29,807 nt of DNA, from positions 2,508,274-2,538,080 of the forward strand of contig NC_071110.1 in the NCBI RefSeq assembly GCF_024256425.1. Direction: 5' to 3'. The position numbers and the translations under genes are program-made. This DNA comes from Clarias gariepinus. Its lineage: Eukaryota. The notes under the pieces were generated by a model. The model ran no database searches, was not told the DNA's origin, and saw only the letters and a list, made by a program, of their open reading frames with translations. The first letter of the stretch is position 1; the number at the start of each line of letters is the position of its first letter. This document shows positions 2,330 to 23,371 of this stretch, piece by piece.

Positions 2330-3830
2330 CTGGAGAGAAACAATGAGCCAAGGAGTGATTACAGGTACAGTGCATGTGTCCCCCCACAGGACCTGTAGAA
2401 ACTAAATAACAAAATGTTACTCATACTGTACTGTTTGCTTATTACTATTACAGTTTTGTTATTATTACTTAACATTTTTACAATTTAAAATGCTTGTAAT
2501 GTTTTAACAATTTTTTATGTGTTGCCTTGGTTTGAGCAGCCGTTATTATGCAATTTAATGCAAAAAAAAAAAAATGCAATTACATGCTTCTGATATGCAA
2601 TTTAAGAATTATTTATAGATATTGTTTTTACTTTTTGAATTAAAATTTTTTGTTACATAACATTTTTCTGTGGCTCGCTCCTTGGGTCATTTTTTTTTCT
2701 CTACCTTTTAATTAAAGTTTTTGTTTTATATCCTTCCTGATGAGTTTATTGTATATTCTATAGATATTTAAAGAGCAATACTTTTCTACTTTTATTTGGA
2801 ATTTTTAATATAATAAGATTTATGTTGTAGATTTTTTTATTTATTTTATACCTCAAGTTATTTTATTACCAATTATACCTTTGTTTAATAAACAGAGAAA
2901 ATGAAAGTTAAACTCAGATAATCAGTTACGCATTTAATTTTTACAAAAAATTGCTGTAAAATAAATACTGGATGTATAAAATTACAGTAGATTGCTGGTG
3001 TGTGTGCTGCCAGTATATTCCTGTAAATTGTAAAAAAAAAAAAAAAAAAAAATACAGAAATATACTGTTTTATGTTTACAGTAATAAACTATAAAGTCAT
3101 TTAACTGTGCTGCCAGTAATCTACTGTTATTTAACAGGAAAATAATTTACAGTGTATCTATACAAATGCGTTTTCAGGCCTCCCCAGGTCTCAAAGGAGC
3201 AAGGACAAATGTAGACAGGGCACTAAATATTCATAACCAAAGGTATCATGCTTTATTCATTAATACTTGAGAAGGGGCCCTTTTGATGGAGCGACAAATA
3301 TATATTATACTGCAATCCCATAAGCTGGCACCCAAAAATGGAAAGGGACTATTAAGTTACCATACAGTAAGTTACAAGTGGGACTGTTTCTGTAAGGGCT
3401 GCCAGACTGGTAAAGTGGTGCTTCGATTTACATGACATTCTAAATCATATAGATCTACAAGGGGAGGTCGGGATCCAAGTGACTGGAAGGAAAAAGTGTA
3501 AAAGAAAAAGGTGTACAAACAATTGGGATGACAGTCTTAAGAAGATTCTCAAGCAAAGCTGATTCAAGAACTTGGGAGAGGTTCACAAGGAGTGGAGTGA
3601 GGCTACAGTCAGTGCATCAGGAGCCACCATGCACAGATGTCTTCATGAAATTGGCTACAATTGTTGCATCCATAGCATCAAGCCACTCCTGAACCAGAGA
3701 CAACTTCAGAAGTATCTCACCTATAGTAAATTTAACAATGATAAACACACACACACGGGACTGACCATAGAGAACATTTAGGGAAGAGAACCACAATGGT
3801 GCCGCACAAATCCTCCACTGCCTACACGTG
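2330..3830 (+). repeat. Copy A of a ~1.5-kb composite interspersed or segmental repeat; its 3' part carries a Tc1-like transposase N-terminal fragment
   Basis: Long stretches align by eye to 26780-27836 and 29172-29590, about 85-90% identical. Examples: acagtgcatgtgtcccc...ttacaatttaaaatgcttgt...; tttctgtggctcgc.ccttgggtcatttttt; gggctgccagactggtaaagtggtgcttc. The poly-A at 3030-3055 and the (TA)n at 26962-27022 are copy-specific microsatellite differences. Confidence 0.7.
3460..3830 (+). mobile_element. Tc1/mariner transposase N-terminal fragment (degenerate)
   Basis: ORF 3572-3781 translates to ...SGATMHRCLHEIGYNCCIHSIKPLLNQRQLQKYLTY, the Tc1-like HTH/N-terminal motif (cf. ...TVHRRLHELGY..R.PLL...). 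A near-identical copy lies at 29205-29590. Confidence 0.6.
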
Positions 3831-4269
3831 ACATGCTCTGCTGTGTTAAACAAATAAATCTCTCCTTTTATACCAAATTTTAAGCAACTACAAGTTTTTT
3901 GGATTAAACAAACAAGCAAAATCACAATGAACATTAAGACTTACATATTGCAAGGTGGCTATTGTCCATATTATCTATCCAGGATACAGTGGATCCAGTA
4001 TATAAAGTTGTGTATTTAAATGCACTTACAGCAAAGTTACACACCAGCTGGAGCATTAAAGAATGAGTGAGGGCAGTGACTTAGTATTATCCAAGCAGGG
4101 AAACACAAGTCAATTTTACAGTGGCTGATCCACATTGTAAATATTTTAAAGATTTTTTCCATTCACATCAAATTACAATGCAGAAAACTTCAAAATTTAG
4201 ATTTTTGAAATGTGCAAATATTGATATTTTTTATGTCATATGTGGAAATCATTTATGGTAAATCAAAAT

Positions 4270-4287: not shown

Positions 4288-4779
4288 TAGTGGAACTGAC
4301 TACCCAGGGCCCTAGTGACAGAGGGCCCTTGGAAACCTGGAATGAAATATGAAAAATATGGATTTGGGTGATTTGGCTAGTGGCTGCTAAACATACCAAC
4401 TGGAATAAATACAGTCACATGCATTTGTTGTATCACTTGTAACTCTGCAATGATAAAATCTATCATTTTATACAGGTAACGTGTACTGTATGTTTAGCAT
4501 TAGAGGAAATGTCTGGGCGTGCACAGAGGAACGTTGTGTGCATGTACAGTGTGTGCAGAATCAATGCCCTTATTTTCAGGAACTCAAGCTTTACTAAAGA
4601 GTTGATCTTTTTTTGGGCATTCATTTTGATATGTTCAACTTAAACAATAATCTGGTTTTCCGCGAACTTATAAGAAGGTAATAATAATAATAGTAATATT
4701 TCTTTCCATTATTATGATATTTACAGGCAACAGAATAATTTTCTTGTGTTGATATAGTAGTCACCACTGGATTAAAATA

Positions 4780-5040
4780 GAATTATTTTTTACCACATAG
4801 GTTTCTATAGCATTGATTAGTTTTGTTTTGTGCCACTAAGTAATGAAAAACCTACTGCAACCTCATAACATGATTTATTTCATGCCAGGGCATGAAAGCG
4901 TGGTATGTGTTTGGGCTAAAATATTAACCTCCCATGTGAACCGAAATAAAGAAATCTGGCATCTACATTGTCAAAACCACAGCTTCCTGCAGCAGCTTCT
5001 CTGACAATCCACATGATGAAACAAATCAACAGATTGTTGG
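4780..5040 (-). pseudogene. Duplicated, degraded copy of the katnal1 DDIADL...PWKG exon plus flanking intron
   Basis: Nucleotide similarity to 8440-8710. Compare ggaagctgtggttttgacaatgtagatgccagatttctttatttcggttcacatgggagg with gggaagctgtggttttgccaatgtggatgccagattttttcaagggcattcggcacccatggaagg. The flanking intronic blocks also match (...agcattgattagt.ttgtt.tgtgccact...ctactgcaacct.ataac). The reading frame is not preserved. Confidence 0.55.
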
Positions 5041-6327: not shown

Positions 6328-6521
6328 TTTACATTTAGGCATTTGGCAGACGCTCTTATTCAGAGCGACTTACATTTTTATCTCATTACACATCTGAGCA
6401 GTTGAGGGTTAAGGGCCTTGCTTAAGGGCCCAACAGTGACAACTTGGTGGTTGTGGGGTTTGAACCTGGGATCTTCCGAACCGTAGTCCAATGCCTTAAC
6501 CACTGAGCTACCCCTGGCCCC
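6328..6521 (-). mobile_element. tRNA-derived SINE (teleost family), reverse orientation
   Basis: Reverse complement of the tRNA-like head ggggccag.ggtagctcagtggttaaggc.ttgg...ggttcaaaccccacaaccaccaagttg.cactgttgggccctt.agcaaggcccttaaccctcaactgctcagatgtgtaatgagataaaaatgtaagtcgctctg...gccaaatgcc.aaatgtaaa. The same family occurs at 25401-25600. Confidence 0.75.
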
Positions 6522-6609: not shown

Positions 6610-7110
6610 AGGACTATCTTTACGCTGTACCTCAGACTTCAGACACTGCTCACAATTTTGCCATCTGCAGAAGTTCTCGGATGATTCTGCTGTCGTGGGC
6701 TGTATCAGGAGAGGCCGAGAGACTGAGTACTGGAGTGTTTTGTGAAGTGGTGTGAACTAAATCACCTGCAGCTCAATGTTTTAAAAAGAGCTGGTGGTTG
6801 ATTTTAGGAAGCAGAGGACCATCCCTAACCCCATAAACATCATGGGCAATAAGGTGGACGTTGTGGACAGCTACAAATACCTAAGTGTTCACATTGACAA
6901 TAAACTGGACTGGTCAAAGAACACTGCTGTTTACAAAAAAGGTCAGAGTCGCCTGTACTTTCTCAGAAGAATTGGGTCCTTTAATATATGCAGAACCATG
7001 CTTCAGATGTTCTACTATTCTGTGGTCTCCAGCATTATCTTCTCTGCTGTAGTCTGTTGGGGTAGCAGATTAATACCAGTGGCATTCAAACTCTATAACT
7101 CTTCCCCCTT
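6610..7110 (+). mobile_element. Non-LTR retrotransposon (L2/CR1-like) RT C-terminal fragment
   Basis: Translation reads KFSDDSAVVGCIRRGRETEY...VVDFRKQRTIPNPINIMGNKVDVVDSYKYLSVHIDNKLDWSKNTAVYKKGQSRLYFLRRIGSFNICRTMLQMFYYSVVSSIIFSAVVCWGS. This is the conserved FADDT...VDFR...LGV.I...L.W......KKAQQRL.FLR tail of fish LINE ORF2. It is interrupted by stops and truncated. Confidence 0.7.
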
Positions 7111-7600
7111 CATTTGGGAGCTGTCATGACAGCATTATCAATAGAGCTTTATCATGCCCTGATACATTGTGCAAAATTAGTATCACAATAATAATAACAT
7201 CATATGCAAAACCAATAATTATGCAAGATTATAAAAATCAAGTGCAATATCATACGGTGTGCAATATTAATATCACTATTACTCTCTATATGCAATATCA
7301 AATATTATGTGCAATATATATCCTGGGTGCAATAATATACATGTACAATACACAAAAGAGGCAATTCTGCACTTTTCTATACAATCAGTAGTGCTTTTAT
7401 TTATTTATATATATTTATTCTATTTATATCAGTTTTTGACATTATAGTACATTTTATTTTATTTTCTAATTTTTTTTATTTCCCATCCTATTGTATTTGT
7501 ATTTTTTAAATATGCAGCTACTGGAGAAACAATTTCCTTCGGGATTAATAACGACTTTTCTTATCTTATTTTTTGCTTTATCTTATTTTTTCTTATCTTA

Positions 7601-8377: not shown

Positions 8378-8557
8378 TCAATAGGATAGGGCAATTATTA
8401 TGTAGAAGACCTATATGGAAAAACCACACTAATCACCAATGGATTCAAATATATACAAGTTTTACTATATTGGTTGCCACAGCATTGATTAGTCTTGTTT
8501 AGTGCCACTGACTTATAAACATACTACTGCAACCTGATAACCTGATATTTCATGTCA

Positions 8558-8764
<207 letters not shown>

Positions 8765-8996
8765 TTAATGGCAGCCAACTGCACCAAATAATACACCTAT
8801 TCCTGAAAGGTCTAGATCTAATCGAATCAGAAAAATCCACAAGACAAAACAAGTCTACAGACAGCTGGATATCATTTTGTCATGTACTATTCAGGAATGT
8901 TGTGAATATCCGGTTCTCCTAATTCTTTATTTGATAATGTACCCTAGCTTCTAGTTTGGGCTATAACATGATATTCATTTAATATTGACAACCAAA

Positions 8997-8997
8997 C

Positions 8998-9033
<36 letters not shown>

Positions 9034-9041
9034 CATCTTTC
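8997..9041. repeat. (AAT)n microsatellite
   Basis: 15 tandem AAT units. Confidence 0.9.
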
Positions 9042-9540
9042 TCAAGCTTCTACTGAGTTACACATATCAGATGTGTAAACGCTACATTCTTCAAGACAAT
9101 TTTTATTTTCTATAAATGATGTTGTCATTTAATACGTGTCTGCTAATATAAAACCTGCTCAAGGAACAAACCCCTAATCTAGGATTTAAGCTGTTTGCTT
9201 TCATAGAAAAATGCCTAAAAAGCATTACCTACATGAAGGTATAACTACTACACCCTAAGTTAATACATTTACATAAGATTGCTGCTTATGAGTTTTATGG
9301 TTAACACAGTCCAGATTTTTTTATTTTTTTATACTGCTGTCCATGTCTAAAGAGAGTTCTCATATAACTCCAATATATTCTACAGAAGTGACAGCAGTCA
9401 AGTACAAAGGAATCAGAATATAAATAACAATGAGTAGATTACAGTAGTACAGATTACAGTAGTTAACCACAATAAATGCCATGAATTTTAACAAAGCATC
9501 ATAATGCAAAAACCCTTATGGAAATTGTTTAACAGTGTAA

Positions 9541-9670
9541 TTGCATTATATTCTTAGATTGTGTATTTTGTACTGTACAGTTATTTTATTTTAATTTTAT
9601 ATTTTATTTTATTCTTTCTTACTTAAACTTACCCTTTATTTTATTTTTCATATTTATTTCCAATTTATAA
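9541..9670 (+). repeat. AT-rich ~130-bp repeat, copy 1 (paired with 11330-11480)
   Basis: tgtgtattttgtactgtacagttattttatttt.aattttatattttattttattctttctta.ttaaacttaccctttattttatttttcatatttatttcc recurs almost identically at 11362-11470. Confidence 0.7.
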
Positions 9671-10385
9671 TCAGTAATAGTCAGAACAAAAATAGCAGAA
9701 CATCGTATAATTTCTTTTAGGCTTTCCTTGCTTTGAGGATTAGGGCAATTAAACCTTGTTTTATACTTGTCATAAATTCTTCCCTGTCTATTCACTCTTT
9801 TAATGCATTGATGAGTACATTTTCAATTCTTCCAAAAGGAAAAAAGGAGAAAAAAAGCAAAGCCAAAACCTTTTTAATCATCTTTTAGAATGTCTTTTCC
9901 AGTGATATGAAACAGATACCTAGAGCCTTTAGTGAAACTAACTTTCCTTTATTCATTTTCATATAACACAGGGATGTTCAGAAAATGGTTGCTTTCATGA
10001 AACAGAAAGTTTTGCTGCCACAGCCTCAATAAACTTTTCATTCTCTTTTATCATACCACTAATTTACCATAGAACCTTGCTTCTCTTGCTAGAAGATGCT
10101 GTTGTGGCTAAATGAGCAAAGCCCCACAACTACTGTACATTCCAAAATTCAAAGGAAATCGTTCCCTGTTTTGTCGAGATTGTTTTAACTGAAATATAAA
10201 TCTGGACTCTTAAGAAAAATCACATGAGGGCATGATGGTCAGGTGTCGATAAACATTTTTACATACAGTATAGTGTAAATGATAATGTAACCACAATAAA
10301 ATTACATTAGTATTACAGAATTTGGCACTGTTGCTTAGGGAAAAAATAAATCTGAAGCTCTAGTTATTTTCCCCCCAAAACCATT

Positions 10386-10912
10386 TCATTTATTATCACA
10401 TAACCTTGTAGTTGAGTTAGTACCCATACAGAACCCAGCATACAGAGGCTGAGTGAATGTGGTGCGCACTCTGTGGAGGAGCCTCATTGTGTAAGAGACA
10501 CTGTAGAAGGACAGAGTTCCAGCATTGTAATCTACATACACTCCTATTCTGGAGGACGCTGGACCTCGGAGCTCAGTCTCAATGCTGTTGTGCCGGAAAG
10601 ATACAGAGGAAGAAAAACACCTCAGACTCCAGGACTGACTGTTGAATCCAAACACACACTCATCACCCTGTCCTTTCCTGCTGATCCCTTGATATGAGAC
10701 TGATATTAACACACCATCACCGCTCCACTCCACCTCCCAGTAACAGCGTCCACACACACTCTCCTTACACAACACCTGAGACCAGGAGTCAAATCTCTTC
10801 GGATGATCAGAGTATTGCTGTCGTGTCCTAATACGTGTCACCGATCTGTTCTTCTCAGACAGAATGAGTTCATAATTTGCTGTTTTGGGATCCAGAGTCA
10901 GATAACGGAAAT
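10386..10912 (-). CDS. Orphan B30.2/PRY-SPRY exon (finTRIM-type terminal exon) with its own stop codon; no upstream RING or coiled-coil exons found
   Basis: The ORF reads ...FRYLTLDPKTANYELILSEKNRSVTRIRTRQQYSDHPKRFDSWSQVLCKESVCGRCYWEVEWSGDGVLISVSYQGISRKGQGDECVFGFNSQSWSLRCFSSSVSFRHNSIETELRGPASSRIGVYVDYNAGTLSFYSVSYTMRLLHRVRTTFTQPLYAGFCMGTNSTTRLCDNK*. It has the classical LDPNTA, CYWEVEW and LSF motifs. The acceptor ttttag|ATTTCC and its phase match those of exon 6 of the upstream ftr gene, to which it is about 75% identical. Confidence 0.7.
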
Positions 10913-11329
10913 CTAAAACAATAAAATGACCACAGGTTGGATTTAAATTTTTATAATAAATATGTGTGAGAGTGTACTCATGCTCTGTATAAAACACTTG
11001 CGATACGGGCTCTTAATCAGTACACCACACAGTACTGATCCATTTTGCACATCACAAATATGTTTTTTGCAGTCACTCTGCACATTCTGGACATTCGTTT
11101 ACACTAGTGGTCACTGCACAACTACACTTCCTGGTCATTAGTTAAATCACTCTATCACAAGTCACTTTAAATAAATCACTTTCGAGCATATTTGCACGCA
11201 CAAGACACTTTAAATATGTGGATTGCACAGCCCCTGGACATTACCATTTTTATTACCATTTATATCTAACTTTATTTCACACAAAAATTCCTAAAAATCT
11301 ACATCTACTTTGTACAGCTGTTTTTCTTA

Positions 11330-11480
11330 TTGTTCCATATTTTTTTCATATATTTTCTTATATTGTGTTTTTTGTACTGTACAGTTATTTTATTTAAATT
11401 TTATATTTTATTTTATTCTTTCTTAGTTAAACTTACCCTTTATTTTATTTTTCATATTTATTTCCTATTTATAGTTTTTT
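11330..11480 (+). repeat. AT-rich ~130-bp repeat, copy 2 (paired with 9541-9670)
   Basis: See 9541-9670. The orientation is direct. Together the two copies flank the orphan B30.2 exon. Confidence 0.7.
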
Positions 11481-11559
11481 ATTTTAAGGTCATGAGCAGT
11501 TGTCAAAGCATTTTACTGCATACACATTGTACTGTACACATTGGCGGCATGGATTCGAT

Positions 11560-11880
11560 TCCTGGCCATCTCAATTCCCGTCTCTGTGTGCATGGAGTTT
11601 GCATGGTCTCTCTGTACTTGATGGGTTTCCTCCGGGTACTCTGGTTTCCTTCCACAGTCCAAAACCATGTAGGTTAGGTTAATTGGCGTTTCTTAAATTG
11701 CCAATAGTGTGTGAATGAGTGTGTGAGTGTGTGTATGTCTGTGTGCCCTGCAATGGATTTGCACCCTGTCCAAGATATACCCCGTCTCGTGCCCTAATTT
11801 TCCTGGGACAGGCTTCAGGTCCCCGCGACCCTGAATACAGGATAAAGTGGTATACAAGATGAGTGAGTATAGATAAAGCA
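11560..11880 (+). repeat. Widespread teleost interspersed repeat fragment
   Basis: ...ggtttcctccgggtactctggtttccttccacagtccaaaaccatgtaggttaggttaattggc...gtgtgaatgagtgtgtgagtgtg...gccctgcaatggatttgcaccctgtccaagatataccccgtctcgtgccctaattttcctgggacaggcttcaggtccccgcgaccctgaatacaggataaagtgg is a sequence common in fish introns. Related pieces lie at 15770-15900 and 16900-16990. Confidence 0.6.
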
Positions 11881-11902
11881 CACAATGTGATTTTGGCTGA
11901 AA

Positions 11903-11907
<5 letters not shown>

Positions 11908-11948
<41 letters not shown>

Positions 11949-11949
11949 T

Positions 11950-11989
<40 letters not shown>

Positions 11990-11992
11990 TGT
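11908..11992. repeat. Compound microsatellite (ATT)n-(GT)n
   Basis: (TTA)13 followed by (GT)18. Confidence 0.9.
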
Positions 11993-12373
11993 CATTCCTC
12001 ACCTTTATATTGCCAACAGTCTGTTTCAGGTCCTCCACCTTTTTTTTTTATTTTCCTGGGTCCTCTGCTGGGATTGTTCCTGCTCAATTTTTAGTTCTTT
12101 CTTTCCAAATAAAAATTTAATTTTTCATTTTATTTAATTATATGCTCTCTAAAACTCTAATTTATTCTTCTGCATTGTAATTGATCGTAAAAATTCTGTT
12201 TCATCTACAATTTGTTAGAATTGGACTCTACTGCTCCATATCAATAGGAAGTGGGAGTGAATTAGCAAGACAGTGAGGTCCAAGAGATCCTCACCTTCTA
12301 AGCATTTCATCAGTGATGTTATGTAACTGTATTTCATTGCCTTGTAGCATACATGTGCAAGGACAACAAAGTC

Positions 12374-12397
12374 TAATCTAATCTAATCTAATCTAAA
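12374..12397. repeat. (CTAAT)n pentanucleotide repeat
   Basis: ctaatctaatctaatctaatctaa. Confidence 0.8.
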
Positions 12398-13080
12398 TGT
12401 AACAGCAAATGTCCACGTCTATCAAAAGCTTCTCAGCAGTCAGTCCACCTCCCCACCTTAATTGTTTTAAAAGTAACAGTACTTGTATTTGGTACTTCTG
12501 GCCCACATGTAAGTTATGCACATGTAGTGTTACAGATCACAGTAGACATTGACACACTGAGTTCACTTCACTCCAATCTATTCTCTCATCTCACATATCT
12601 CCGAAGTATCCTTCACAAAACTACTACCAGTAACCTCATGCACTCCCCCAGACCCAAACTGTGGTGGTATTTAAGCTCTAAAAATTCCAGTCCAGAAATC
12701 TGACTTCATCCTGGTTTTAGCTTCAGCCTTTTCTTTTTCCGGGCACTAAGTAAAACCTGGAGCACACCAGAAAGACCAGGGCAAAAGACCAGGTTTGCTT
12801 ATGTTATGGAGTTGTTGATTCTATAAGGTGTGTCTTGCATTGTCTCATCTTAAAATCCAAAAGGTGTTTAAATACACTGAATGATCTAATAAGTTAACAC
12901 CTTACAGTACATACAATAACAATTTGATATTAAATAAGAATTAACCAGATGGAAGTCATAGATCCATTTTAAATCAACTAAACACAACTAAACAAATTAT
13001 AAGTATCTGTGAAACTGACCCATTGACAGCAAATCATTAAAAAAGAGTTTTTAAAATTTTCAAATGCATATGCCTTTCAT

Positions 13081-13262
13081 GGGGACAGGGTGGCTTGGTG
13101 GTTAAGGTGGTTAAGGTGGACCAGGATGTCCCCAGTTCGAGCCTGACACTGTCAGGTTGCCACTATTGGACTCTTGAGCAGGGTCCTTCACCCCTCAGAT
13201 ACAGTGTTCAGGTACAATTGGGCATTAAGCTGGCGACCCAACCCTGTAAATAACTGTCACAG
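13081..13262 (+). mobile_element. tRNA-derived SINE (second family)
   Basis: tRNA-like head ggggacagggtggcttggtggttaagg...ggttcgagcc with an internal 10-bp duplication (ggttaaggtg x2), followed by a tail ...gggcattaagctggcgacccaaccctgtaaataactgtcacagg. Confidence 0.6.
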
Positions 13263-13489
13263 GAACAATGGATGTATATCTGAAGTGACAACACTTTCTG
13301 GCCAAAAAAAGCCACCGTTTGTATTTAATGAAGTGAATACTTAAGAGCCATGTATCGGATAATTACTGCAGTATTTATTATGTTTTAGCTGGCACCAACA
13401 ACTGATGCACTGAGTAGCATTGCATTCTTAAATCCATGTCGAAAGAAATATCCCATGATCATAAAAAAAAATTATTAAATTGTATGTAT

Positions 13490-14050
13490 ATAGCGCTTTA
13501 TATGACGTAAAGCAACTTTACAGAACTAAACAGACATGCATTTGCATAAGGTTACAAAAAATAAGTAAAAAATACAGTTCTATAGTTTATTTGTCAACAA
13601 AACTTCAGGTTGTCTTACAAACACACAAATAGAAACAGAAACTGTTGTCTAAATAAAGACAGGCAATAGTATTGGAATCTACTGTTTTAGTTCAGACCTG
13701 GTTTGTTGATTCTTGCTGTTCCACAGGGACTGAATAGATTCATTTTTAAAAAAACATAAGATTTAGCAATAACACATCAGACAAAACATTCTATAGTTTA
13801 AACTATGTACTTAATTTCAAACTACCTAACAAAAACTATAAAATGTCCCCTATGCAGATGAAAGTAAAATAATAATGATAAGAACTAACACACGCAAATA
13901 TGCAGCTTCCAGCCGTGAATTCAAACTACAAGTGGAGAATAGACGAGCCAATCCAGAAACCAAGAATGTGCACACCTCCAGTTTCTGATTGGCTGGTATT
14001 GCCCCAATTTTAGTTTCTGGTTGGCTGGAACTGTGGCAGAGTTCTAGCGC
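13490..14050 (+). repeat. Interspersed repeat with CCAAT-like TTTCTGATTGGCTGG motifs (paired with 19930-20175)
   Basis: ...ggttacaaaaaa.aagt..ctatagt.t...caacaaaacttca.gttgtct.acaaacacacaaa...ttcaaacta.aagtggagaa.a..gagc.aatccag.a.caa.aatgtgc...ctc.agtttctgattggctggt.tt is shared by both copies. The motif occurs twice in this copy. Confidence 0.6.
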
Positions 14051-14216
14051 TGCTGCAGTCCGAGCAAGTGTAGCAACAGTGTGATATTAGCATACTTATA
14101 CTTAATATATTAACTAATGGTACACTTTTTTGTTAGTATCTTTGCAATGTACTATAAAAGATTTGAATATATTTCTAATACACAAAAGTGTACTTTTTTC
14201 TTTAGGGTAGTTACTG

Positions 14217-14222
14217 TTTATT
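14217..14222 (-). terminator. Candidate AATAAA polyadenylation signal for the ftr gene
   Basis: Minus-strand AATAAA about 66 nt downstream of the exon-6 stop codon, in the context ttaaaataaacagtaac. Confidence 0.35.
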
Positions 14223-14287
14223 TTAAAGACTCATTCTACTGTACAATGGACATATTTTAATATATGCTAAACCCTTTTACTATTATG

Positions 14288-14811
14288 TCATTTTGGATCA
14301 CATAACTTTACAGTTGAGTTATAAAATACCCAGAACCCAGCATACAGAGTTTGAGTGAATGTGGTGTGGACTCTGTGGAGGAGCATCATCGTGTCAGAGA
14401 CATTGTAGAAGGACAGAGTTCCTTCACTGTGATCCACATACACTCCTATCCTGGAGAAGGCTGAACCTTGGATCTCGGTCTCAACATTGTTGTGCCAGAA
14501 AGAGACAGAAGTAGAAGAACATCGCAGGCTCCAGGACTGATTGTTCCGTCCAAACATACTCTCATCACCTCGTCCTTTCCTGCTGATCCCTTTGTATGAG
14601 ACTGCCATGTACACACCACCACTCCACTCCACCTCCCAGTAACAGCGTCCATACACACTCTCCTTACACAATGCCTGAACCCAATAGTCAAATCGCTCTG
14701 GATGATCAGAGTATTGTTGATCTGTCCCACTGCACACCATTGCTCTGTTCTTCTCCTTCAGAACAAGTTTAGGGTATGCCGTGTTAGGATCCAGGGTGAA
14801 ATATTTGAAAT
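14288..14811 (-). CDS. finTRIM (ftr) gene exon 6: B30.2/PRY-SPRY domain and stop
   Basis: (Y)FKYFTLDPNTAYPKLVLKEKNRAMVCSGTDQQYSDHPERFDYWVQALCKESVYGRCYWEVEWSGGVYMAVSYKGISRKGRGDESMFGRNNQSWSLRCSSTSVSFWHNNVETEIQGSAFSRIGVYVDHSEGTLSFYNVSDTMMLLHRVHTTFTQTLYAGFWVFYNSTVKLCDPK*. The acceptor is gttttttag|ATTTCAAAT in phase 2. The length is 524 nt, that is 2 + 174 codons. The exon is open from the acceptor to TGA. Confidence 0.8.
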
Positions 14812-15419
14812 CTAAAAAACAATAAATGTCACTGAAGGCTGCTCATTATAGGATTTATAATACATGTTTCTGTCCGATCAATTGTGTTGTTGTTTTTTTT
14901 TTTTTTGAAGATTTACTCCTTAATTTAGTCATACCTACTTTCCATCCGTTACTAGGGGGCTTTTATATTAAGGCTACTACTACGACTCAGAGAGAGCCAA
15001 AGACTATTACGTGTTTCCTCCGAACCGTGCACATGCTGCTAGCTAACCGCATCTTTTCAAACTCACGCTCACTCACTATTGAGGGTGGCGTAACACACTC
15101 GGAGAACAGCACTATCTTCTCCTTACCCCTGTGAGAGCTCACAGATACCCCTGATTGGCTGTAGAGCCGTGATTGATGTGATAGTCTTGACCACCCCCAT
15201 CCCACTCCCGCTGAGGGAGCTCAGTCAAGACCCTGGCTGACCATCGCAAGCTCTCTCTCGACCCTGGCTGAGGCTGCAGCATCACCGGGGAATGACTCAT
15301 TATCTCTATATGATATCGCAAGCACTTTAACACTGTGCTACTTGGGGGCCATAATTGTGGTTTAATATTACCCAACATCACCCCTCAAGTTCAAATGTGT
15401 AGCTAAACATTTACACTTA

Positions 15420-15476
15420 CACTGCAGGAAATCCTTTCTGCTTTTCGGTTCAGAGAGCAACATCTGACCTGCTGAA
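15420..15476 (-). CDS. finTRIM gene exon 5 (57 nt)
   Basis: tcttcacag|CTTCAGCAGG...TTCCTGCAGT|gtaagtg. With phase 1 in and phase 1 out it encodes (A)SAGQMLLSEPKSRKDFLQ(Y), which links ...ISKILSE to FKYFTLDPNTA. The acceptor and donor are consensus-like. The exon is small, so alternative positions cannot be excluded. Confidence 0.5.
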
Positions 15477-15769
15477 GCTGTGAAGACAGAGACAAAGTGG
15501 AGATAAGAATAATGTGGAAACAGTGGAAAGAATAAATATGAAAAATTTTATTCCTTCCTGGTTTCAGAGTGGCACCTCAATAACAGATATTATTTATGGT
15601 GATATCTTTGTGTAATATGTGGGTTGACTAGTGGGTAAAATCAGTATTAGATTTCAAGGCATAATTCTTGTTACATGCAAACAGGATTACATAAATATAT
15701 ACTGTACACCGCCTGGCCAAAATCAAATATACTAATATTTTGTTTGCCGTCCTTGTTTTGATAATAGAC

Positions 15770-15900
15770 ATGACATCCTTTATGTAAAATTGTGGACTGT
15801 GGGAGGAAACCGGAGTAGCCGAGAGAAACCCACCAACCCACTCCAACTCTACCCACAGACCAAATGTGGGATTTGAACCCACAACACTACTGTGCCATCT
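15770..15900 (+). repeat. Teleost interspersed repeat fragment
   Basis: gactgtgggaggaaaccggagtagccgagagaaacccaccaacccactccaactctacccacagaccaaatgtgggatttgaacccacaac resembles the common fish repeat ...ggactgtgggaggaaaccggagcacccggaggaaacccacg.... Confidence 0.5.
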
Positions 15901-16139
15901 GTGTATATTTTTCATTACCCTTTAAAAAAGCAATATTTTAGCTTTTAAAATGATTAAATATCATACATCATGATTACGCTGTTTATTCATTTACTGCAAA
16001 CCCTCTGATAGACCCAGTGACTTTTATGGGTGTCTGTGGCGGATTCAAGTACACCTAGTTTTAACAAATGTTTGACAAATAGTGTTAATCTAATTTAAAT
16101 AAAGTCTTTTGAGTCTCTGAATTATAAGAACTTGTTTAC

Positions 16140-16299
16140 CTTCTGAAAGAATTTTGCTGATTTTTTTCCCACAGATTTCCTCGATTTGTTTTTTTAGACG
16201 TGAGAGCGATTTCATCACTCCATCAAATGTGAGATGTTGATTGACAGTGAAGCTGGGTGAGTCCTCACATCCAGGAGAAACACAGAGAGACGGGAAACT
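16140..16299 (-). CDS. finTRIM gene exon 4 (160 nt)
   Basis: ctgtag|AGTTTCCCG...TTTCAGAAG|gtaaac. It encodes SFPSLCVSPGCEDSPSFTVNQHLTFDGVMKSLSRLKKQIEEICGKKISKILSE plus 1 nt, and matches the ftr/btr linker between the coiled coil and the B30.2 domain (SF.SL...P......S..V.........V..S...L...LE.FC..E..KIS). Confidence 0.65.
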
Positions 16300-16487
16300 C
16301 TACAGAGAGGAAACACATCATAGAGAAGGAGAAAAGTGTAGGAGAGGAACGAATGAATCTCAGACTGAATCAGACCAAAGACACACTTGTGATCTCAGAC
16401 AGGAACATTTATTGTTGCTGTAATGAGCTTTTAGGAGGAAACTTTGTGAGGAACAGCGCCCTCTGTAGATCAGACAGTGAGTGTTAC

Positions 16488-16721
16488 CTGGAGGAAGTGG
16501 ATGTCATCGTGTGTGTGTGAAAGCTGTTCCAGCTCAGTGACTCTCCTCTTAAGATCAGCAATCTCCTGCTCCAGTTGCTTCAGGAGTCGTTCAGCTCGAC
16601 TCAGTTCAGCTTTCTCCTGAACTCTGATCAGCTCCGTCACCTCCGAGCGCTTTTTCTCCATAAGGCTGATCAGCTCAGTAAAGATCCTCTCATTCTCATC
16701 TACTGCTGCCTGTGAACGCCT
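16488..16721 (-). CDS. finTRIM gene exon 3 (234 nt, coiled coil)
   Basis: ttctaacag|AGGCGTTCA...TTCCTCCAG|gtaaca. It encodes RRSQAAVDENERIFTELISLMEKKRSEVTELIRVQEKAELSRAERLLKQLEQEIADLKRRVTELEQLSHTHDDIHFLQ, 78 codons in phase 0. The 234-nt length equals the canonical ftr exon 3 and the sequence closely matches the ftr consensus. Confidence 0.8.
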
Positions 16722-16728
16722 CTGTTAG

Positions 16729-16845
16729 AACACACACACACACAGACGCACACACAGACACACATACACAAAGAACTTTCTTATAAAATCAGATCCTTTT
16801 TTGTTTTTTTTGTGTGTGTGTGTGTGGGGGGGGGGTGGTCGGGGG
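16729..16845. repeat. (CA)n / (GT)n / poly-G compound microsatellite abutting the exon-3 acceptor
   Basis: acacacacacacagacgcacacacagacacacatacaca ... tgtgtgtgtgtgtgtgggggggggtggtcggggggt. On the minus strand this places a (TG)n tract immediately 5' of the exon-3 acceptor. Confidence 0.85.
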
Positions 16846-16989
16846 GTAAAGCATGGGGTTAGCCCAAGTAAATAAAAGTATGTGCAGGCCAAAGCATACT
16901 TAAGTGTATCTTCTATAACGCTTTCTCCTGTATACAGGCGACCTGGAGCCTATTCCAAGAGGCTTAGGGCATGAGGCAGGGTACAGTAC

Positions 16990-17270
16990 ATCCTGGACAT
17001 TCCTCCAAAGCAGGAGAGATCTCCTCTAGAGCAGTGATGTTTTGGGGCTGTCGCTGGGCAACATGGACTTTCAACTCCCTCCAAAGTTTTTCCATGGGGT
17101 TGAGATCTGGAAACTAGCTAGGCCACTGCAGGACCTTGAACTGCTTCGTTCCCTGGTGGTTTGTTTCGGATTATTGTCATGCTGAAAGACCCAGCCACAT
17201 TTTATTCCCAATGCCCTTGCTAATGGAAGGAGGTTCTCACTCAAAATCTTACGATACTTGGCCCCAGTAG
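16990..17270 (-). mobile_element. Tc1-like transposase C-terminal fragment
   Basis: Minus-strand translation contains ...[35 protein letters not shown]..., the Tc1 DDE C-terminal signature (LEWPSQSPDLNPIENLW..LK..V..R.P.N...L). Confidence 0.65.
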
Positions 17271-17379
17271 TATTAATGTCCTATTGTGTTACTGTTACTG
17301 TCAGTGAATATCTGTCCTGGTCCCTTATAGTCCAGGACAGATATTGGAAATTGGATGCTAATTAACTTCCTTCTGCCTA

Positions 17380-18095
17380 ATCCTGATAAGAGAGAAGTTC
17401 TAGTCATAGGACCGCATACAGCTAGAAGTAAGATTTTAGATTACTCTGTAACTTTAGATGGCCTTTCTGTTCCATCAAGTGCAACAGTAAAAGACCTCTG
17501 TGTGATTATAGACTCCAGCCTAATATAGATAATATTATCAGGATAGCATTCTTTCACCTCAGAAATATTGCCAAGATAAGAAATATATTGTCGCTAAACG
17601 ATGCAGAAAAACTAGTTCATGCTTTTATCACCTCTAGGTTGGACTATTGTAATGCCTTACTGTCTGGTTGTTCAACTACTGTAGGTGCATAAACAAGCTT
17701 CAGCTAGTCCAGAATGCAGCAGCGAGAGTCCTCACTAGAACCAGAAGATATGAGCACATCACACCTACCTTATCTTTACTTCATTGGCTCCCTGTAAAAT
17801 TTTGCATTGTTTTTAAAACACTACGTTTGACATAAAGTATTAAATGGTCTCCCACCGCAGTATCTGAGTGAACTGCTAGTGTCTTACAAACCGCCACGCC
17901 TACTTCGATTGAAGGATGCAGGCTGCTTGTCAGTACCGCGTATTATGAAAAATACAGCTGGGGGCAGAGCTTTTTCTTACAAAGCCCCAAAGTTATGGAA
18001 TAGTCTTCCAAATAGTGTTCGGGACTCAGACACAGTCTCAGTGTTTAAGTCCAGGCTAAAAACCTATTTATTTAATCAAGCATTTTTATAAATAG
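17380..18095 (+). mobile_element. Non-LTR retrotransposon 3'-terminal fragment
   Basis: Translation reads ...NILSLNDAEKLVHAFITSRLDYCNALLSGCS...LQLVQNAAARVLTRTRRYEHITPTLSLLHWLPVKF.IVFKTL ... GGRAFSYKAPKLWNSLPNSVRDSDTVSVFKSRLKTYLFNQAFL*. This is the conserved tail of fish LINE-associated elements (AF..A.P.LWN.LP..IR.A.SL..FK..LKTHLF). Confidence 0.65.
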
Positions 18096-18394
18096 ATTAG
18101 CCTTAGGTAAAGGAGCAGATCTGGGGGACTCATGGACGTAGAGTATTAGGTGAACTGGTATGTTTAGATCCTGTCTTCCTCACTCTCATTGATCACTCAG
18201 GTTTGCTGACGGTGAGGTGATTGGTTGCTTTACATCTCAGGAAGCCCTCATGTCTGTGTTTCCTTCTGGCTCTCCCTTTTAGTTATGCTGTCATAGTTAG
18301 TCCTGCCGGAGTCTCTGCTTGCACTCTACAGTAAATATACATTTACATTATACATTGTATGACTGTGACCAGACCTAACTGGTATCTCTTCTCT

Positions 18395-18470
18395 TCTGCT
18401 CTCTCTACTGCTCTTTCTCTTCCCTCTCTCCTTCCCTCTCTCCCTTTCCCTCTCTCTGTCGAGCTACACA
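18395..18470. repeat. CT-rich low-complexity tract (CTCTCC/CCTCTCT)n
   Basis: tctcttctgctctctctactgctctttctcttccctctctccttccctctctccctttccctctctctg. Confidence 0.8.
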
Positions 18471-19018
18471 TGTCGTTCCTAAGCTGCCAGTGATCCAGAC
18501 TCCCTCTGCCCTCCGGACCTGTCTGACTCATCCTGGTGCCCCGCTTCTGGTTGGAGATCTTGTCACATGGATGCCCCGTGTGTCTCTTTGGGATGCGTCT
18601 CGTGTCTGGTGATGGTTATCTTGACCTAGAAGACGGTTCTGGACTGGAATTTTTATACAAGTCCACCTGAGTTTTCAATAACTAACTGGACTCCATATTT
18701 ACATCAATTAACATCAACTGTTAAGCTGAACTGCCTGCCAACTAACACACAGTATAAATGCAGATCAATTCCTGCTTTCTGTTTCACCCAAATGAGGATG
18801 GGTTCCCCGTTGAGTCTGGTTCCTTTCAAGCTTTCTTCCTACTACCATCTCACAGAGTTTTTCCTTGCCACTGTCGCAAAAGATTTCCTGTGGCGCTCTG
18901 TGGAACATTTTACGTAATCAGTCTCTGGCTAAAATTGCTCCTCTGGTTAGCGAAAACCCTGTATAGTGGGTGAGAAGGATTGTTCAAAATGGATTGTACT
19001 TTGGAAAGAATCCTCCTC

Positions 19019-19780
19019 CTAGCTACTTTTCATTTCGGCCTTTTTAATTGCCTTGTCCAGTCTGTTCGTATCAAACACCTTCATGTTACAGCCCCAACAG
19101 ACCACAGCGTAAAAAATGACACTCGCCACAACGGTTCCATAAAACATCCGTAGAATGGTGTTACACCATTGGAGTAGGTGTATTATGGTGTCCTTTACTC
19201 CCATGAAAGGCTGATAGGCAAACTGAAGAGGGTCCAGAGAGGACTTCACCAGGGGACGAAGTGCATCCAGGATCAGTCTCTCCAACACCTTCATAATGTG
19301 CAATTTCAAAGCAACAGGCCTGTAGTCATTCTGGGCACAGGAACGTGATATTTTGGGGACCAATACAATACATGATTGTATTTCCACAATGCAGAGACTT
19401 TCTGTAGAGACAGACTTAAGGCTAAAGGGGTACTGGAGGACACCACAGAGTTGGGGAGCACAAGATTTCAGGACTCTGGGATTTATCTTGTCCGGACCAG
19501 CTTTACAGCTTTTGTAGGGCTGAGCTTGCTTAGGCCATATTTGACCTGATCCACTGAGATATTGAATGAGGGGAGTGCAGGAGTAGTGAATGTTTTTGTG
19601 TAGGGGAGGACATGGGAGCAGGAAGGTGGATTGGGGCTGAAGCTGGGGAAAGTGTGAGACATGGGGACATCAAATCTATTAAAGAAAGTGTTGAGATTGT
19701 TTGCAAATTCCACATTCCCCTCAATAGCCTTGCAGCTTGTCTTATAGCCATGGTGCTCCCCATGCCCCTCCACACCTCTC
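19019..19780 (-). mobile_element. L2/CR1-like LINE RT fragment with an internal deletion
   Basis: ORF 19483-19773 ends LSPTKAVKLVRTR (the ...KAAGPDGI.PR.LK region). ORF 19019-19387 reads IVLVPKISRSCAQNDYRPVALKLHIMKVLERLILDALRPLVKSSLDPLQFAYQPFMGVKDTIIHLLQ joined directly to ...FYGTVVASVIFYAVVCWG...LDKAIKKA. The RT N-terminal and C-terminal motifs are therefore juxtaposed and the core is missing. Confidence 0.7.
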
Positions 19781-19789
19781 TCGTGTTGT

Positions 19790-19900
19790 TTTGATTTAGC
19801 CTTTTTTTCCAGTTATTTTCCCAATCCAGACATTCTCCCAGTTCTCTTCTGGATCATCCAAATGCTCTCTAGCAAACTTTAGACGGGCCGGGACATGTTA
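19790..19900. mobile_element. Tc1-like element fragment
   Basis: ccaaatgctctctagcaaactttagacgggccgggacatgtt matches the Tc1-like segment also seen at 26700-26760 (ttttggcaaacttcagacgggctgccatgtgtc). Confidence 0.4.
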
Positions 19901-19929
19901 CATGTTATCAGTAATGATTAGGCAGATTT

Positions 19930-20175
19930 TATTCATAAGGTTAACAGATTTAATTTGCACACGGTTACAAAAAAAAAGTTTCTATAGTCTTCAACAAAAC
20001 TTCACGTTGTCTCACAAACACACAAACAAAAATATAAATTTTGTCTGAACAAAACAGGCATGTTTAATCAAGAATTCAAACTAGAAGTGGAGAACAACAG
20101 AGCTAATCCAGGAGCAAAAAATGTGCCTGCCTCTAGTTTCTGATTGGCTGGTGTTCACTAGGGAAGTGACGCTGG
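19930..20175 (+). repeat. Second copy of the 13490-14050 repeat, ending about 20 bp from the ftr exon 2 donor
   Basis: See 13490-14050. It contains one TTTCTGATTGGCTGG motif (20137-20151). Confidence 0.6.
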
Positions 20176-20196
20176 TAGTATTTTCTCACTCCTCAC

Positions 20197-20292
20197 CTTA
20201 ATAGTGGTCACAGTCTTTTCCAGCTCCTGCACCTCCTTCTGCTTCTTCTGGATCCTTGTCTGGGATTTCATCTGCTCCTCATTTAGCTCATT
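20197..20292 (-). CDS. finTRIM gene exon 2 (96 nt, coiled coil)
   Basis: ttctcag|AATGAGCTAAAT...ACTATTAAG|gtgaggagtgag. It encodes NELNEEQMKSQTRIQKKQKEVQELEKTVTTIK in phase 0. The 96-nt length is the hallmark ftr exon 2. The other two frames contain stops. Confidence 0.7.
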
Positions 20293-21399
20293 CTGAGAAA
20301 AAAGACATACATTTTATTAATTCTATGTTAAGGGCTAACTGTGTGAATATTAACTTTAGGTACAGATTTACACTTCCTGTAACTTCATATAACTCCCCAT
20401 CTCTTTCTTCCTGCACTACAGATGAAGGTTTTATATTATGGGGCTTTCCTCAGTTCATACCCTGCATCAGACAAAGAGTTTTTCAGCTATCAGTACTCAC
20501 CAATCTCTGTTTGATATCCTTGATATACATTATGAGCAGCTACTGTTTTTTTTATAGCTATGCACGCCTGTTTGGGCAACAATATTTAATATGACAGCTG
20601 TGGTTTCCACGCATTAGTTTCAATCAGTTTATCAACTGACTACCATCACTATTTCAAATAAACCCTATTGGCTAATTGTTATTGATAAATCTTGCTATCA
20701 AGACTTTTAGATGTATAACCGCATATGACATTAGGTAATTAAATTTTAACAACAAAAACAACAGTCAATTGTTATTTTAAGATAGTTCTTGCAAGAAAAG
20801 TATTGGGTCAAGTGCATTTTTAAAACCCATCAATGATGAAACTGTCTCTCATGAAGACCTTCCCAGGAAAACAAGACCAAAACTGAGCTCTGCTGCAGAG
20901 GAGAAGTTCATTTAGAGTCACCAGCCTCAGAAATCACCAATTAACAACCAGCACCTCAGATTAGAGCCGTTATGAAGCTTTACAGAGCAGAAGGAGCAGA
21001 TAAACATCTCAAAATCAACTTTTCAAATAAGATTATTGTTTATAAATTGTCTCCTGTTTAAAGGATATATTTTGGATATTTTGGTGTGTCCAAACTTTCA
21101 AACTTTTGACAGAGGTGCTACCACAGTTGTAAAATGGGAATAAATTCAGTGATAATCACTATTGGCCTCCATGGTCCTATAAGGGAGCACCATTAGAGGT
21201 CGCTGTTTGTCATTTGTAGTTTTTGTTGGCTGACTCAGTTTCCCAGAAGGCACGTCGGTCAGGTGATGCGAGTGCACACCTGAGCTGAGGTAGCCATTAG
21301 TCCATCTACAAAATAGCTGTTTAGTCTGGGAAACTGGGTCGAGCATTATCATTTACACGACTGTCATTTATGTGGGCATTTTGTGTTGTTTTTGTTAAG

Positions 21400-22120
21400 T
21401 TTGTATTTTGATTTACGTTATGGTTGAGTTGGGCTCTCATATTGGGAATGTTTCCTGTATATGTTCTGTGTGTCTATGTTTTTGGAGCTGATTCAGTCAT
21501 GTCATGTGTAGTGAAGTTCATGTGTATGTGAGTATTGTGGTTCTTGTCCCTCTGTTTTCGTGTGTGTTTAGGTAGAGCAGGTAAGTAGCTAGGTGTGTGT
21601 TTGGCTACTGTAGGAGCGTGTTTAGCTAAAAATCAAATGTTGAGCTAACTGTCATGCTTCTAGCCATAGCCCCTTTGTGTCTCTAGCCTTTGTGTTTCCT
21701 GCCTCCCTGGTTTCCCGGTGAGCCTAGCCTTTGAGTGTCCCTCATCTGTGTTTCTGTGCCCCGATTCCCTAGTGTTGTGTTGAGCTATTAGGTAAGTGTA
21801 GCTTAGTGCATGTCGGGCTAAAGACATGCTTAGCTAGATGTATGTGTAGCTGACTGTCATGGTTAGCTAATAGCCATGTCTAGCTCATTGCCATGTCTTT
21901 AGCCCTAGCCCTGTCTCTCGTCTGTCTTTAGCCCTAGTCCTGTCTCAGCTTCACGCATAGTTTGTGTCCTGTCACGTGTTTCGCCACAGGGTGTTTGCTA
22001 GGAGTCCTTCAGCCTGTTTTTCGCTACAGAGCTTGAACATAGTGTAACGGGTATTAGAGCCTGTTGGTGTCCCTTAGTCTGTGTCCTGCCTGAGAGCCGA
22101 TGTTATTAAGTTTTGTTTGA
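21400..22120. repeat. Internally repetitive low-complexity block in ftr intron 1 (tagctaa / tagcc / gtctttagccctagccctgtctc motifs)
   Basis: Recurring short motifs, for example ...gtctttagccctagccctgtctctcgtctgtctttagccctagtcctgtctc..., and multiple ttagcta / gtgtagct repeats. There is no coding potential. Confidence 0.5.
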
Positions 22121-22557
22121 GTTTGTTCCTTTGTTTGTTTTGTGTAGCAGCAATAAAATAGAGCTATGAAATTAGAATAAAAAAGATAGAGGATGGCATT
22201 AAAAATGGCATTTATGGGGCTTGTATTTAAATGTTAAGGAAACTTTGAGTTTGTGATGAAGGCCCTTTGAGAGATTACTTGCACTATTACTCACTTACTC
22301 CAGTAAGCCTAACACCTACATGTCAGAGTTCACAATACATCTGAGAATCGTTGATGTCATGAATGAACTGACAATTACATTTGTTGACAGATAATTTGAT
22401 TATAGATTTTAATTTTAAAAAGATTTTAATGTATATTCACATTCAAGTAAAACACAGTCATATATGCTAATAAAACAACTGAATAAAACTAGATTAGAAA
22501 CAGAATCTGCATAAATTTACATTAATGAAATGAAGAATAACATTGTCCAGTTCTCAC

Positions 22558-23139
22558 CTGTTTTTCAGTCCTTTCTGCTTTAGTTGAAACCGTCTCATGG
22601 CCTTTGTGTTCATCCATCGTACACAAGTAACAGATGAAGCTTTGGTCAGTACGACAGTAGATCTCGATCGGTTTGTCATGCTGAAAGCAGATCTTCTCTT
22701 GGAGCTCACAGGCTTCCACTAACTTGTGCTTCTTAAAGGCAGGAGACTGATAGTGAGGTTGAAGATGGTCTTTACAATAGGATGCCTGACACACCAGACA
22801 GGAATTAACAGCTTTGCGTTTTCTCCCGGGGCAGGAATCACACTCCACATCTCCAGGTCCAGCGTAACAGTGAGCAGGAGAAGCAGGTTGGACTTCAGAC
22901 TTCTTCAGTTTCTCCACCACTTCAGCCAGCATGGTGTTCCTGCGTAGAACAGGTCTTGGAGTGAAAGTCTCTCTACACTGAGGACAGCTGTAGACACCCT
23001 TTACATCCTCACAATCCCAAAAGTCATTAATACACACCTTACAGAAACTGTGGCCACAGGAAGTAGAAACTGGATCTTTTAGGAGGTCCAGACACACTGG
23101 ACAGCTAAACTGATACTGATCGGTTGAAATACCTGCCAT
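22558..23139 (-). CDS. finTRIM gene exon 1: RING (C3HC4) + B-box1 + B-box2; initiator ATG at 23139
   Basis: MAGISTDQYQFSCPVCLDLLKDPVSTSCGHSFCKVCINDFWDCEDVKGVYSCPQCRETFTPRPVLRRNTMLAEVVEKLKKSEVQPASPAHCYAGPGDVECDSCPGRKRKAVNSCLVCQASYCKDHLQPHYQSPAFKKHKLVEACELQEKICFQHDKPIEIYCRTDQSFICYLCTMDEHKGHETVSTKAERTEKQ | gtgaga donor. The exon is 194 codons. The listed ORF starts 6 codons upstream at a GTG. The first in-frame ATG gives MAGIS..., which matches ftr N-termini. Confidence 0.8.

Positions 23140-23365: not shown

Positions 23366-23371
<6 letters not shown>

Follow-up and report, generated by a model that had tools for sequence, protein, structure and literature searches.

A well-preserved orphan B30.2 exon behind a complete finTRIM gene of Clarias gariepinus: probable remnant of a truncated paralogue

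Introduction

The finTRIM (ftr) family of fish consists of clustered genes in the same orientation, accompanied by pseudogenes and incomplete members (PMC2657112). The published exon layout is 555-594/96/234/154/60/~545 nucleotides (nt) (van der Aa et al. 2009, PMC2657112), and likely pseudogenes were reported among the zebrafish genes (PMC2657112). As this survey began from the exons encoding RING and B-box (RBB), orphan exons encoding only the B30.2 domain would escape cataloguing. Here, we describe such an exon in Clarias gariepinus. The window analysed is a stretch of 29,807 nt (assembly GCF_024256425.1, contig NC_071110.1, positions 2,508,274 to 2,538,080), and all positions below are counted from its first letter. 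The window carries a complete finTRIM gene on the minus strand (gene A, with its B30.2 domain in exon 6) and, further downstream on the same strand, the orphan B30.2 exon (exon 6').

Two further systems are relevant for comparison. In the TRIM5-CypA fusion (TRIMCyp), CypA lies in or near the 3' untranslated region of TRIM5 and is spliced to the RING, B-box and coiled-coil part (RBCC), with the native B30.2 exons being skipped (Newman et al. 2008, PMC2279257). Between NLR-B30.2 and finTRIM genes of fish, B30.2 exon shuffling and gene conversion have been described (Howe et al., bioRxiv 10.1101/027151).

An initial annotation of the window had interpreted exon 6' either as an alternative last exon of gene A or as the relic of a partial tandem duplication. 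Our analysis favours a remnant of different origin: with a probability of roughly 0.55, exon 6' is the surviving terminal exon of a truncated neighbouring finTRIM paralogue, and thus an ordinary product of birth-and-death evolution.

Results

The orphan exon and the gene in front of it

Exon 6' starts 3.4 kb downstream of exon 6 of gene A. Its open reading frame (ORF) is intact and free of lesions. The initial annotation had assigned it the same acceptor phase as exon 6 and a stop of its own, and this was borne out: a phase-1 AG acceptor is followed by 174 codons up to a TGA, matching exon 6. The acceptor region is conserved with that of exon 6 up to position 10925 and with intron 5 of Pangasianodon gigas up to position 10946. 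Pfam identified a complete PRY (E = 2.7e-21) and SPRY (E = 3.5e-12), the same pair as in exon 6. The top database relatives were TRIM16-like and TRIM25-like B30.2 domains of catfish (77-79% amino acid identity), and the nearest solved structures were those of the PRY/SPRY of TRIM16L (PDB 6sjh, the top match) and TRIM16. Exon 6' is a finTRIM-type B30.2 exon, with PRY and SPRY in one phase-1 terminal exon of the ftr/TRIM16/TRIM25-like kind. The first in-frame ATG appears only at about codon 142. The first canonical AATAAA follows 433 nt beyond the stop, inside the range of 22-680 nt between stop and AATAAA after catfish ftr B30.2 exons.

The model of gene A was built by mapping catfish homologs and reading the splice sites. 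The gene spans positions 14288-23139 and comprises six coding exons of 582/96/234/160/57/524 nt (the last including the stop), with GT-AG introns throughout and an open frame of 550 amino acids. Five Pfam domains were found, each above its cut-off: zf-C3HC4_4 (RING), zf-B_box, TRIM_CC (E = 9e-52), PRY and SPRY. Gene A is a complete canonical finTRIM, its exon sizes and domain set agreeing with the published layout (PMC2657112). The closest database relatives of every part of the gene were siluriform proteins (77-82% identity). No protein with at least 90% identity to exon 1, exon 6 or exon 6' was present in the collection searched. The coordinates of all features are given in Table 1.

Table 1. 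Features of gene A, of the orphan exon and of the region around it, in the order of the minus strand
Feature	Position	Strand	Details
Exon 1, gene A	22558-23139	-	582 nt; RING and B-boxes; ATG at 23139
Exon 2, gene A	20197-20292	-	96 nt; coiled coil
Exon 3, gene A	16488-16721	-	234 nt; coiled coil
Exon 4, gene A	16140-16299	-	160 nt; phase-1 end
Exon 5, gene A	15421-15477	-	57 nt; phase-1 end; donor GT at 15420
Exon 6, gene A	14288-14811	-	524 nt; B30.2; complete PRY and SPRY by Pfam
Poly(A) signals, gene A	ATTAAA 14256-14261; AATAAA 14217-14222	-	27 and 66 nt past the exon 6 stop
finTRIM exon-2 (coiled-coil) relic	12003-12100	-	98 nt (canonical 96); same strand as gene A
(GT/CA)n microsatellite	11953-11992		directly after the donor of the exon-2 relic
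AT-rich direct repeat, copy B	11344-11473		430 nt upstream (minus sense) of exon 6'
3' splice region of exon 6'	10913-10946	-	pyrimidine tract, then AG at 10914-10913
Exon 6' (orphan B30.2, PRY/SPRY)	10386-10912	-	527 nt; phase-1 start; 174 codons; TGA at 10388-10386
First canonical AATAAA after exon 6'	9948-9953	-	433 nt beyond the stop
AT-rich direct repeat, copy A	9541-9669		~720 nt downstream of the exon 6' stop

Relationship of exon 6' to exon 6 and to other catfish

The two B30.2 exons of the window share 80.2-80.7% of their DNA sequence and 68.8% of their protein sequence, with 55 amino acid differences; the earlier figure of about 75% identity falls between the ~80% measured for nucleotides and the ~69% measured for amino acids. 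The differences were concentrated at positions that are variable in the family (39 of 83 variable columns, 16 of 91 conserved columns; Fisher p = 4e-5), in line with the clustering that the initial annotation had described. The similarity is limited to 10383-10925 versus 14285-14826, i.e. to the exon and ~14 nt of the acceptor.

A tandem duplication of exon 6 alone would account for the shared strand, the shared phase and the likeness of the acceptors over these ~14 nt. This origin, which was one of the two initially proposed, is contradicted by the data and has very little left in its favour. Exon 6 and exon 6' do not form a closest pair: the latter is nearer to the copies of other catfish (Pangasianodon, Pangasius, Tachysurus and Ameiurus) than to the former. 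Identity to the B30.2 exons of P. gigas was 86-89% at the nucleotide level (best value 89.4%, locus L002, 21385-21900), and identity to those of P. djambal and T. fulvidraco was ~87% in the coding alignment. The synonymous divergence (dS) of exon 6' was 0.145-0.23 to the copies of other catfish and 0.38 to exon 6. Beyond the edges of the exon, similarity of the flanks is absent. Moreover, a relic of another finTRIM exon lies between the two (see the following subsection).

Exon 6, for its part, was about equally far from all catfish copies (dS 0.30-0.42), and exon 1 of gene A showed a comparable level (dS 0.26-0.35). At nucleotide sites that are invariant in the other catfish copies, private changes amounted to 9.0% in exon 2 and 9.3% in exon 6 of gene A. 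Gene A is thus a coherent and rather divergent lineage of which exon 6 is a part. Exon 6' and the exon-2 relic belong to another, 'typical' catfish lineage.

A gene-conversion tract between exon 6 and exon 6' was not found; the longest identical run was 29 nt, and the identity of ~80% was even along the exon. Pairwise dN/dS (the ratio of nonsynonymous to synonymous divergence) was discarded as a test of function. It was 0.54-0.90 between exon 6' and other catfish and 0.78-0.98 among the P. gigas copies themselves, so that function and decay are inseparable by this measure.

The interval between the two B30.2 exons

The interval 10913-14287 had been described as free of any RING, B-box or coiled-coil exon. 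This holds for exons 1, 3, 4 and 5, for which no counterpart was found by tblastn with 240 homologs, by Smith-Waterman alignment against shuffles, or with exon-5 peptides and a positive control. It does not hold for the coiled coil: a relic of finTRIM exon 2 is present. The relic is frame-shifted by two extra nt within an A-run but retains an AG acceptor and a GTGAGG donor. Its nucleotide Smith-Waterman score was 36, as opposed to 11.1 +/- 0.9 for dinucleotide-type shuffles. In tblastn, catfish exon-2 peptides matched it in two frames (E ~1e-5). At the DNA level, it is 80-84% identical to exon-2 copies of P. gigas and carries 21 substitutions with respect to the catfish consensus. The (CA)n tract after exon 2 is common to the relic and to most catfish ftr copies and is absent in gene A.

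As exon 6' is distant from exon 6 and the relic has the (CA)n tract that gene A lacks, the two pieces point to a separate, truncated paralogue. Upstream of exon 6' there is only the frame-shifted exon-2 relic, with no RBB exon and no other middle exon, and the unit is thus not a complete finTRIM. Exons 1 and 3-5 are lost and exon 2 is frame-shifted, as in a gene-fragment pseudogene, but exon 6' itself is lesion-free. Without a promoter, a start codon and an upstream partner exon of its own, exon 6' is unable to yield a protein autonomously. The initial term 'relic' was therefore right in kind, as the exon is probably the tail of a truncated gene, and wrong as to origin, as it is not a copy of exon 6. 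Fragments of this type are found elsewhere: the ftr loci of P. gigas, T. fulvidraco and A. melas contain orphan exon-2 copies, partial or half B30.2 exons and partial genes.

It is very improbable that exon 6' belongs to a B30.2-only gene, with a short unrecognised first exon carrying an ATG and a phase-1 donor in 10913-14287, or located upstream of a cryptic promoter. The databases do contain many catfish models of ~190 amino acids with B30.2 only, and TRIM16L (PDB 6sjh) is a natural RING-less protein of this branch. Against it, neither an exon-5-like sequence nor a Pfam-recognisable ORF is present in the interval. The notion that B30.2-only genes are common in catfish was not upheld either. 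The mapped loci showed exons 5-6, or exon 6 alone, of full-length genes that had been split by annotation. As the B30.2 relatives listed were all of at most 340 amino acids, their length distribution is not evidence.

Two other candidates in the interval were rejected. A B-box-like tblastn match at 11032-11121 (E = 0.001) contains a stop and was treated as chance. It was made up of 428 matches from related queries, its nucleotide scores were within the range of the shuffles, and its protein score was significant only before correction for ~200 windows. An NLR-B30.2 gene was dismissed after Pfam had found no LRR, NACHT or other domain in the minus-strand ORFs of the interval. RNA genes were not found in the interval by Rfam or by a tRNA scan.

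A further observation concerns 13529-13997, upstream of the exon-2 relic, where two segments are ~74-84% identical to the first ~200 nt of intron 2 of gene A (19943-20152). They are not collinear with the relic. The segments may represent either a dispersed repeat or part of a further (third) gene fragment.

Preservation of exon 6'

The state of exon 6' is the main difficulty for its interpretation as a remnant, as the exon is too well preserved for an old relic. In a neutral simulation with indels at 10% of the substitution rate, the probability of an intact ORF was at most 0.08 at a divergence of 0.04. It reached at least 0.26 only at divergences of at most 0.02. Exon 6' departs from the family at 5 of the 91 columns with at least 90% conservation across 101 homologs, which is in the normal range (median of 2 departures; 20% of the homologs have at least 5). 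Private changes at invariant sites were found at 4.5% in exon 6', compared with 19.2% in the exon-2 relic (Fisher p = 5e-5) and 9.3% in exon 6 of gene A (p = 0.017). Among the private changes in framework codons, 11 were nonsynonymous and 9 synonymous, corresponding to a pN/pS of 0.36. This value is a weak signal from 20 substitutions, with p = 0.02 at equal rates and p = 0.04-0.08 when a transition bias is taken into account.

The substitution pattern of exon 6' is not that expected of a neutral fragment, while a short recent neutral phase (t up to ~0.05) is compatible with it. Since exon 6' has less change at conserved sites than the relic, it has drifted for a shorter time than the relic alongside. 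Hence, one of the following holds: exon 6' was orphaned or arrived recently, it was refreshed by gene conversion, it is still used, or its history is separate from that of the relic.

Direct repeats and the possibility of a recent insertion

The AT-rich direct repeats of about 130 bp that had been noted on either side of exon 6' are present and 94-95% identical (copies A and B in Table 1). Movement of the exon as a cassette, which had been deduced from them, does not follow. There are only two copies in the window, with none near exon 6, and a search of the catfish loci described below yielded nothing beyond low-complexity matches. The arrangement is explained equally well by two insertions from a single repeat family, with one insertion truncated. 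Copy B adjoins a stretch (~11500-11890) that we take to be a common teleost interspersed repeat from the way it reads; neither Pfam nor Rfam gave a match.

These repeats are also the starting point for another reading, in which a piece of ~1.7 kb with the B30.2 exon was recently copied from a functional finTRIM elsewhere in the cluster and the repeats mark the junctions. Such an insertion would explain why the repeats bracket the exon, and their divergence (~0.03 per copy) fits an intact ORF under neutrality. The small number of private changes in exon 6' and the much older look of the exon-2 relic would fit as well, the latter pointing to separate histories of the two pieces. We nevertheless consider it unlikely. 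The window has just two copies of the repeat, neither of them near exon 6, and the repeat-like stretch beside copy B suggests, from our reading of it, that two insertions of the same family would suffice. Moreover, no exon 5 was carried along, although it lies only ~85-140 nt upstream of exon 6 in three species. In N. graeffei, exon 5 lies 1.3-2.3 kb upstream of exon 6.

Possible use as an alternative last exon of gene A

The second interpretation of the initial annotation was that transcripts of gene A skip exon 6 and its poly(A) sites and join exon 5 (or exon 4) to position 10912. The predicted product would be a finTRIM of 551 amino acids with a second B30.2 specificity, and the exon would be kept by selection, whatever its origin. 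We regard this as a serious but less likely possibility.

Several features of the locus would allow it. The only exon-5 sequence in the window is that of gene A, and its exons 5 and 4 are the only plausible phase-1 donors for exon 6'. Joining either of them to 10912 keeps the frame, and the joint with exon 5 is open over the 551 amino acids. The acceptor region of exon 6' is conserved, a stop codon ends the exon, and an AATAAA follows downstream. The exon is better conserved than both the exon-2 relic and exon 6, and its private changes lean towards synonymous ones. As there is no early ATG, splicing from gene A would be the sole route of expression, and selection on exon 6' would imply that it occurs. 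A precedent is the TRIM5-CypA of macaques, in which a recognition module downstream of a TRIM gene is spliced to the RBCC part (PMC2279257).

On the other hand, exon 6 has an equally good acceptor that is closer, and the two poly(A) signals shortly after its stop should end most transcripts. Among eight loci of five catfish species (P. gigas, P. djambal, T. fulvidraco, A. melas and N. graeffei), whose orthology to the window is not established, none combined a single RBCC with two B30.2 exons. A test of synteny against the end of the P. gigas cluster (a gene with an AHD domain) gave no matches. In trout, finTRIM diversity was shown not to arise from one RBB exon being spliced to many C-terminal exons (PMC2657112). 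Finally, the signal of selection, which comes from 20 substitutions (p = 0.02-0.08), is weak, and gene conversion would produce a similar one.

Observations at other catfish loci

The P. gigas cluster (L002) contains three orphan exon-2 copies nearly identical to the family consensus (7073-7183, 16411-16518 and 18057-18167), two of them inside a long intron 3. Exon 2 and its (CA)n tail seem to have been duplicated there as a unit. Two partial B30.2 pieces are found in the same cluster (3027-3299 and 8961-9059).

In A. melas (L006, 6966-10685), finTRIM exons 1, 3 and 4 are spread across several frames with stops, and the B30.2 exon is intact. The gene may be a pseudogene in which this exon survives. 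This locus was not used as a precedent for a B30.2 exon outliving its gene, as frameshifts in otherwise well-conserved sequence suggest indels from long-read assembly.

In N. graeffei (L007, 1-20564), a public RBCC-PRY/SPRY model of 602 amino acids spans the whole locus of 20.5 kb. An intact B30.2 exon (10043-10555), annotated as a gene of its own with 187 amino acids, is passed over by this model. The model is either a chimeric prediction or reflects real long-range splicing past a usable B30.2 exon.

Other features of gene A and of the window

Exon 6 of gene A deviated from the catfish consensus at 11 of the 91 columns that are at least 90% conserved, while the maximum among the 101 homologs was 9; this set was picked by similarity to exon 6' and is hence somewhat biased. 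Among the deviations are Ala>Glu in VDHSAGTLSFY, where the Ala is otherwise invariant, and Cys>Tyr in SVCGRCYWEV. Despite the bias of the homolog set, the canonical exon 6 appears more aberrant than the orphan exon 6'.

Intron 5 of gene A has a length of 609 nt, compared with ~85-140 nt in three other catfish. It contains an insert of ~450 nt (14890-15381) with a terminal run of ~15 A at ~14891-14905. The insert resembles a retroposon of the short interspersed nuclear element type. ARAGORN found no tRNA in it, and Pfam found nothing in its ORF.

Mobile elements and repeats are present throughout the window. Rfam identified a UnaL2 3' element of a long interspersed nuclear element (LINE) at 6333-6386 (minus strand, 58.6 bits), and the surrounding segment (6328-6520) has an inverted copy of ~190 nt at 25402-25595 with 93% identity. 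LINE-related ORF fragments were found at 6794-7129, and a weak reverse-transcriptase fragment is located in intron 2 of gene A (19019-19387). At a distance of 200-650 nt upstream of the start codon of gene A, there are long palindromic repeats that are perfect or nearly so (23355-23444 and 23404-23817). Their arms measure up to ~400 nt at 89% identity, with perfect cores of 66 nt, and a related palindrome was found at 26948-27028. Direct repeats of 250-840 nt with 80-93% identity connect 27032-27834 with 2593-3424, 29197-29592 with 3444-3840, and 8430-8676 with 4758-5000. These dispersed repeats, which flank the finTRIM gene on either side, probably represent transposable-element copies. An ORF at 28477-28932 (minus strand), which had no Pfam match, is presumably a fragment of a Tc1/mariner-type transposase, judging by how it reads.

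Discussion

The history that we favour for exon 6' starts from two tandem paralogues arranged head-to-tail, with gene A followed by a second finTRIM. Deletions would have removed the RING/B-box exon and exons 3-5 of the second gene. Its exon 2 would have been left behind as the frame-shifted relic and its B30.2 exon as a whole, so that both pieces would derive from one former gene. Exon 6' would currently be unused: most probably it is silent, or at most a minor alternative 3' exon. If it is a remnant only, the locus is a further case of birth-and-death turnover in a fast-evolving immune gene cluster, and the value of the finding lies mainly in annotation. Exon 6' should then not be called a gene, and the exon-2 relic accounts for its origin. 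The many short 'B30.2-only' catfish models in the databases turn out to be split full-length genes.

The preservation of the exon leaves some room for a role. Less probably, selection may maintain exon 6' as a second B30.2 terminal exon, used in mutual exclusion with exon 6, which would provide one RBCC with two recognition domains of different lineage. In a weaker variant, the exon may be retained without expression, as a donor or reservoir on which gene conversion within the cluster could draw. Should the first of these be true, TRIM genes would diversify by a route not described before, the salvage of a recognition exon from a neighbour that is dying. A fish antiviral TRIM with two alternative recognition domains would have its closest parallel in TRIM5/TRIMCyp, and a systematic survey of finTRIM clusters for orphan B30.2 exons would be worthwhile.

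Compared with the exchange between NLR-B30.2 and finTRIM genes (Howe et al., bioRxiv 10.1101/027151), the locus is alike in that B30.2 exons behave as semi-independent modules, which fits an exon 6' that is far better conserved than the exon-2 relic. Unlike in that case, exon 6 and exon 6' show no sign of a conversion tract.

An alternative last exon would find its working model in TRIMCyp of Old World monkeys (Newman et al. 2008, PMC2279257). The macaque module arose by retrotransposition of a cyclophilin A cDNA, and its transcripts were demonstrated, whereas the candidate module here is a paralogous B30.2 exon. In addition, a linked mutation abolishing the native exon-7 acceptor promotes expression of TRIMCyp, whereas the acceptor of exon 6 in gene A is perfect.

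A further comparison is with the ftr family itself (PMC2657112). As in that family, B30.2 is encoded by a single phase-1 exon, and most differences between exon 6 and exon 6' fall on positions that vary within the family. Partial or disabled copies, known from the family, were also encountered in four other catfish genomes. Unlike in the ftr reports, the second copy consists only of a decayed exon 2 and an intact, unusually well-conserved last exon, and this last exon is located 3.4 kb behind a complete gene whose donors it might in principle use.

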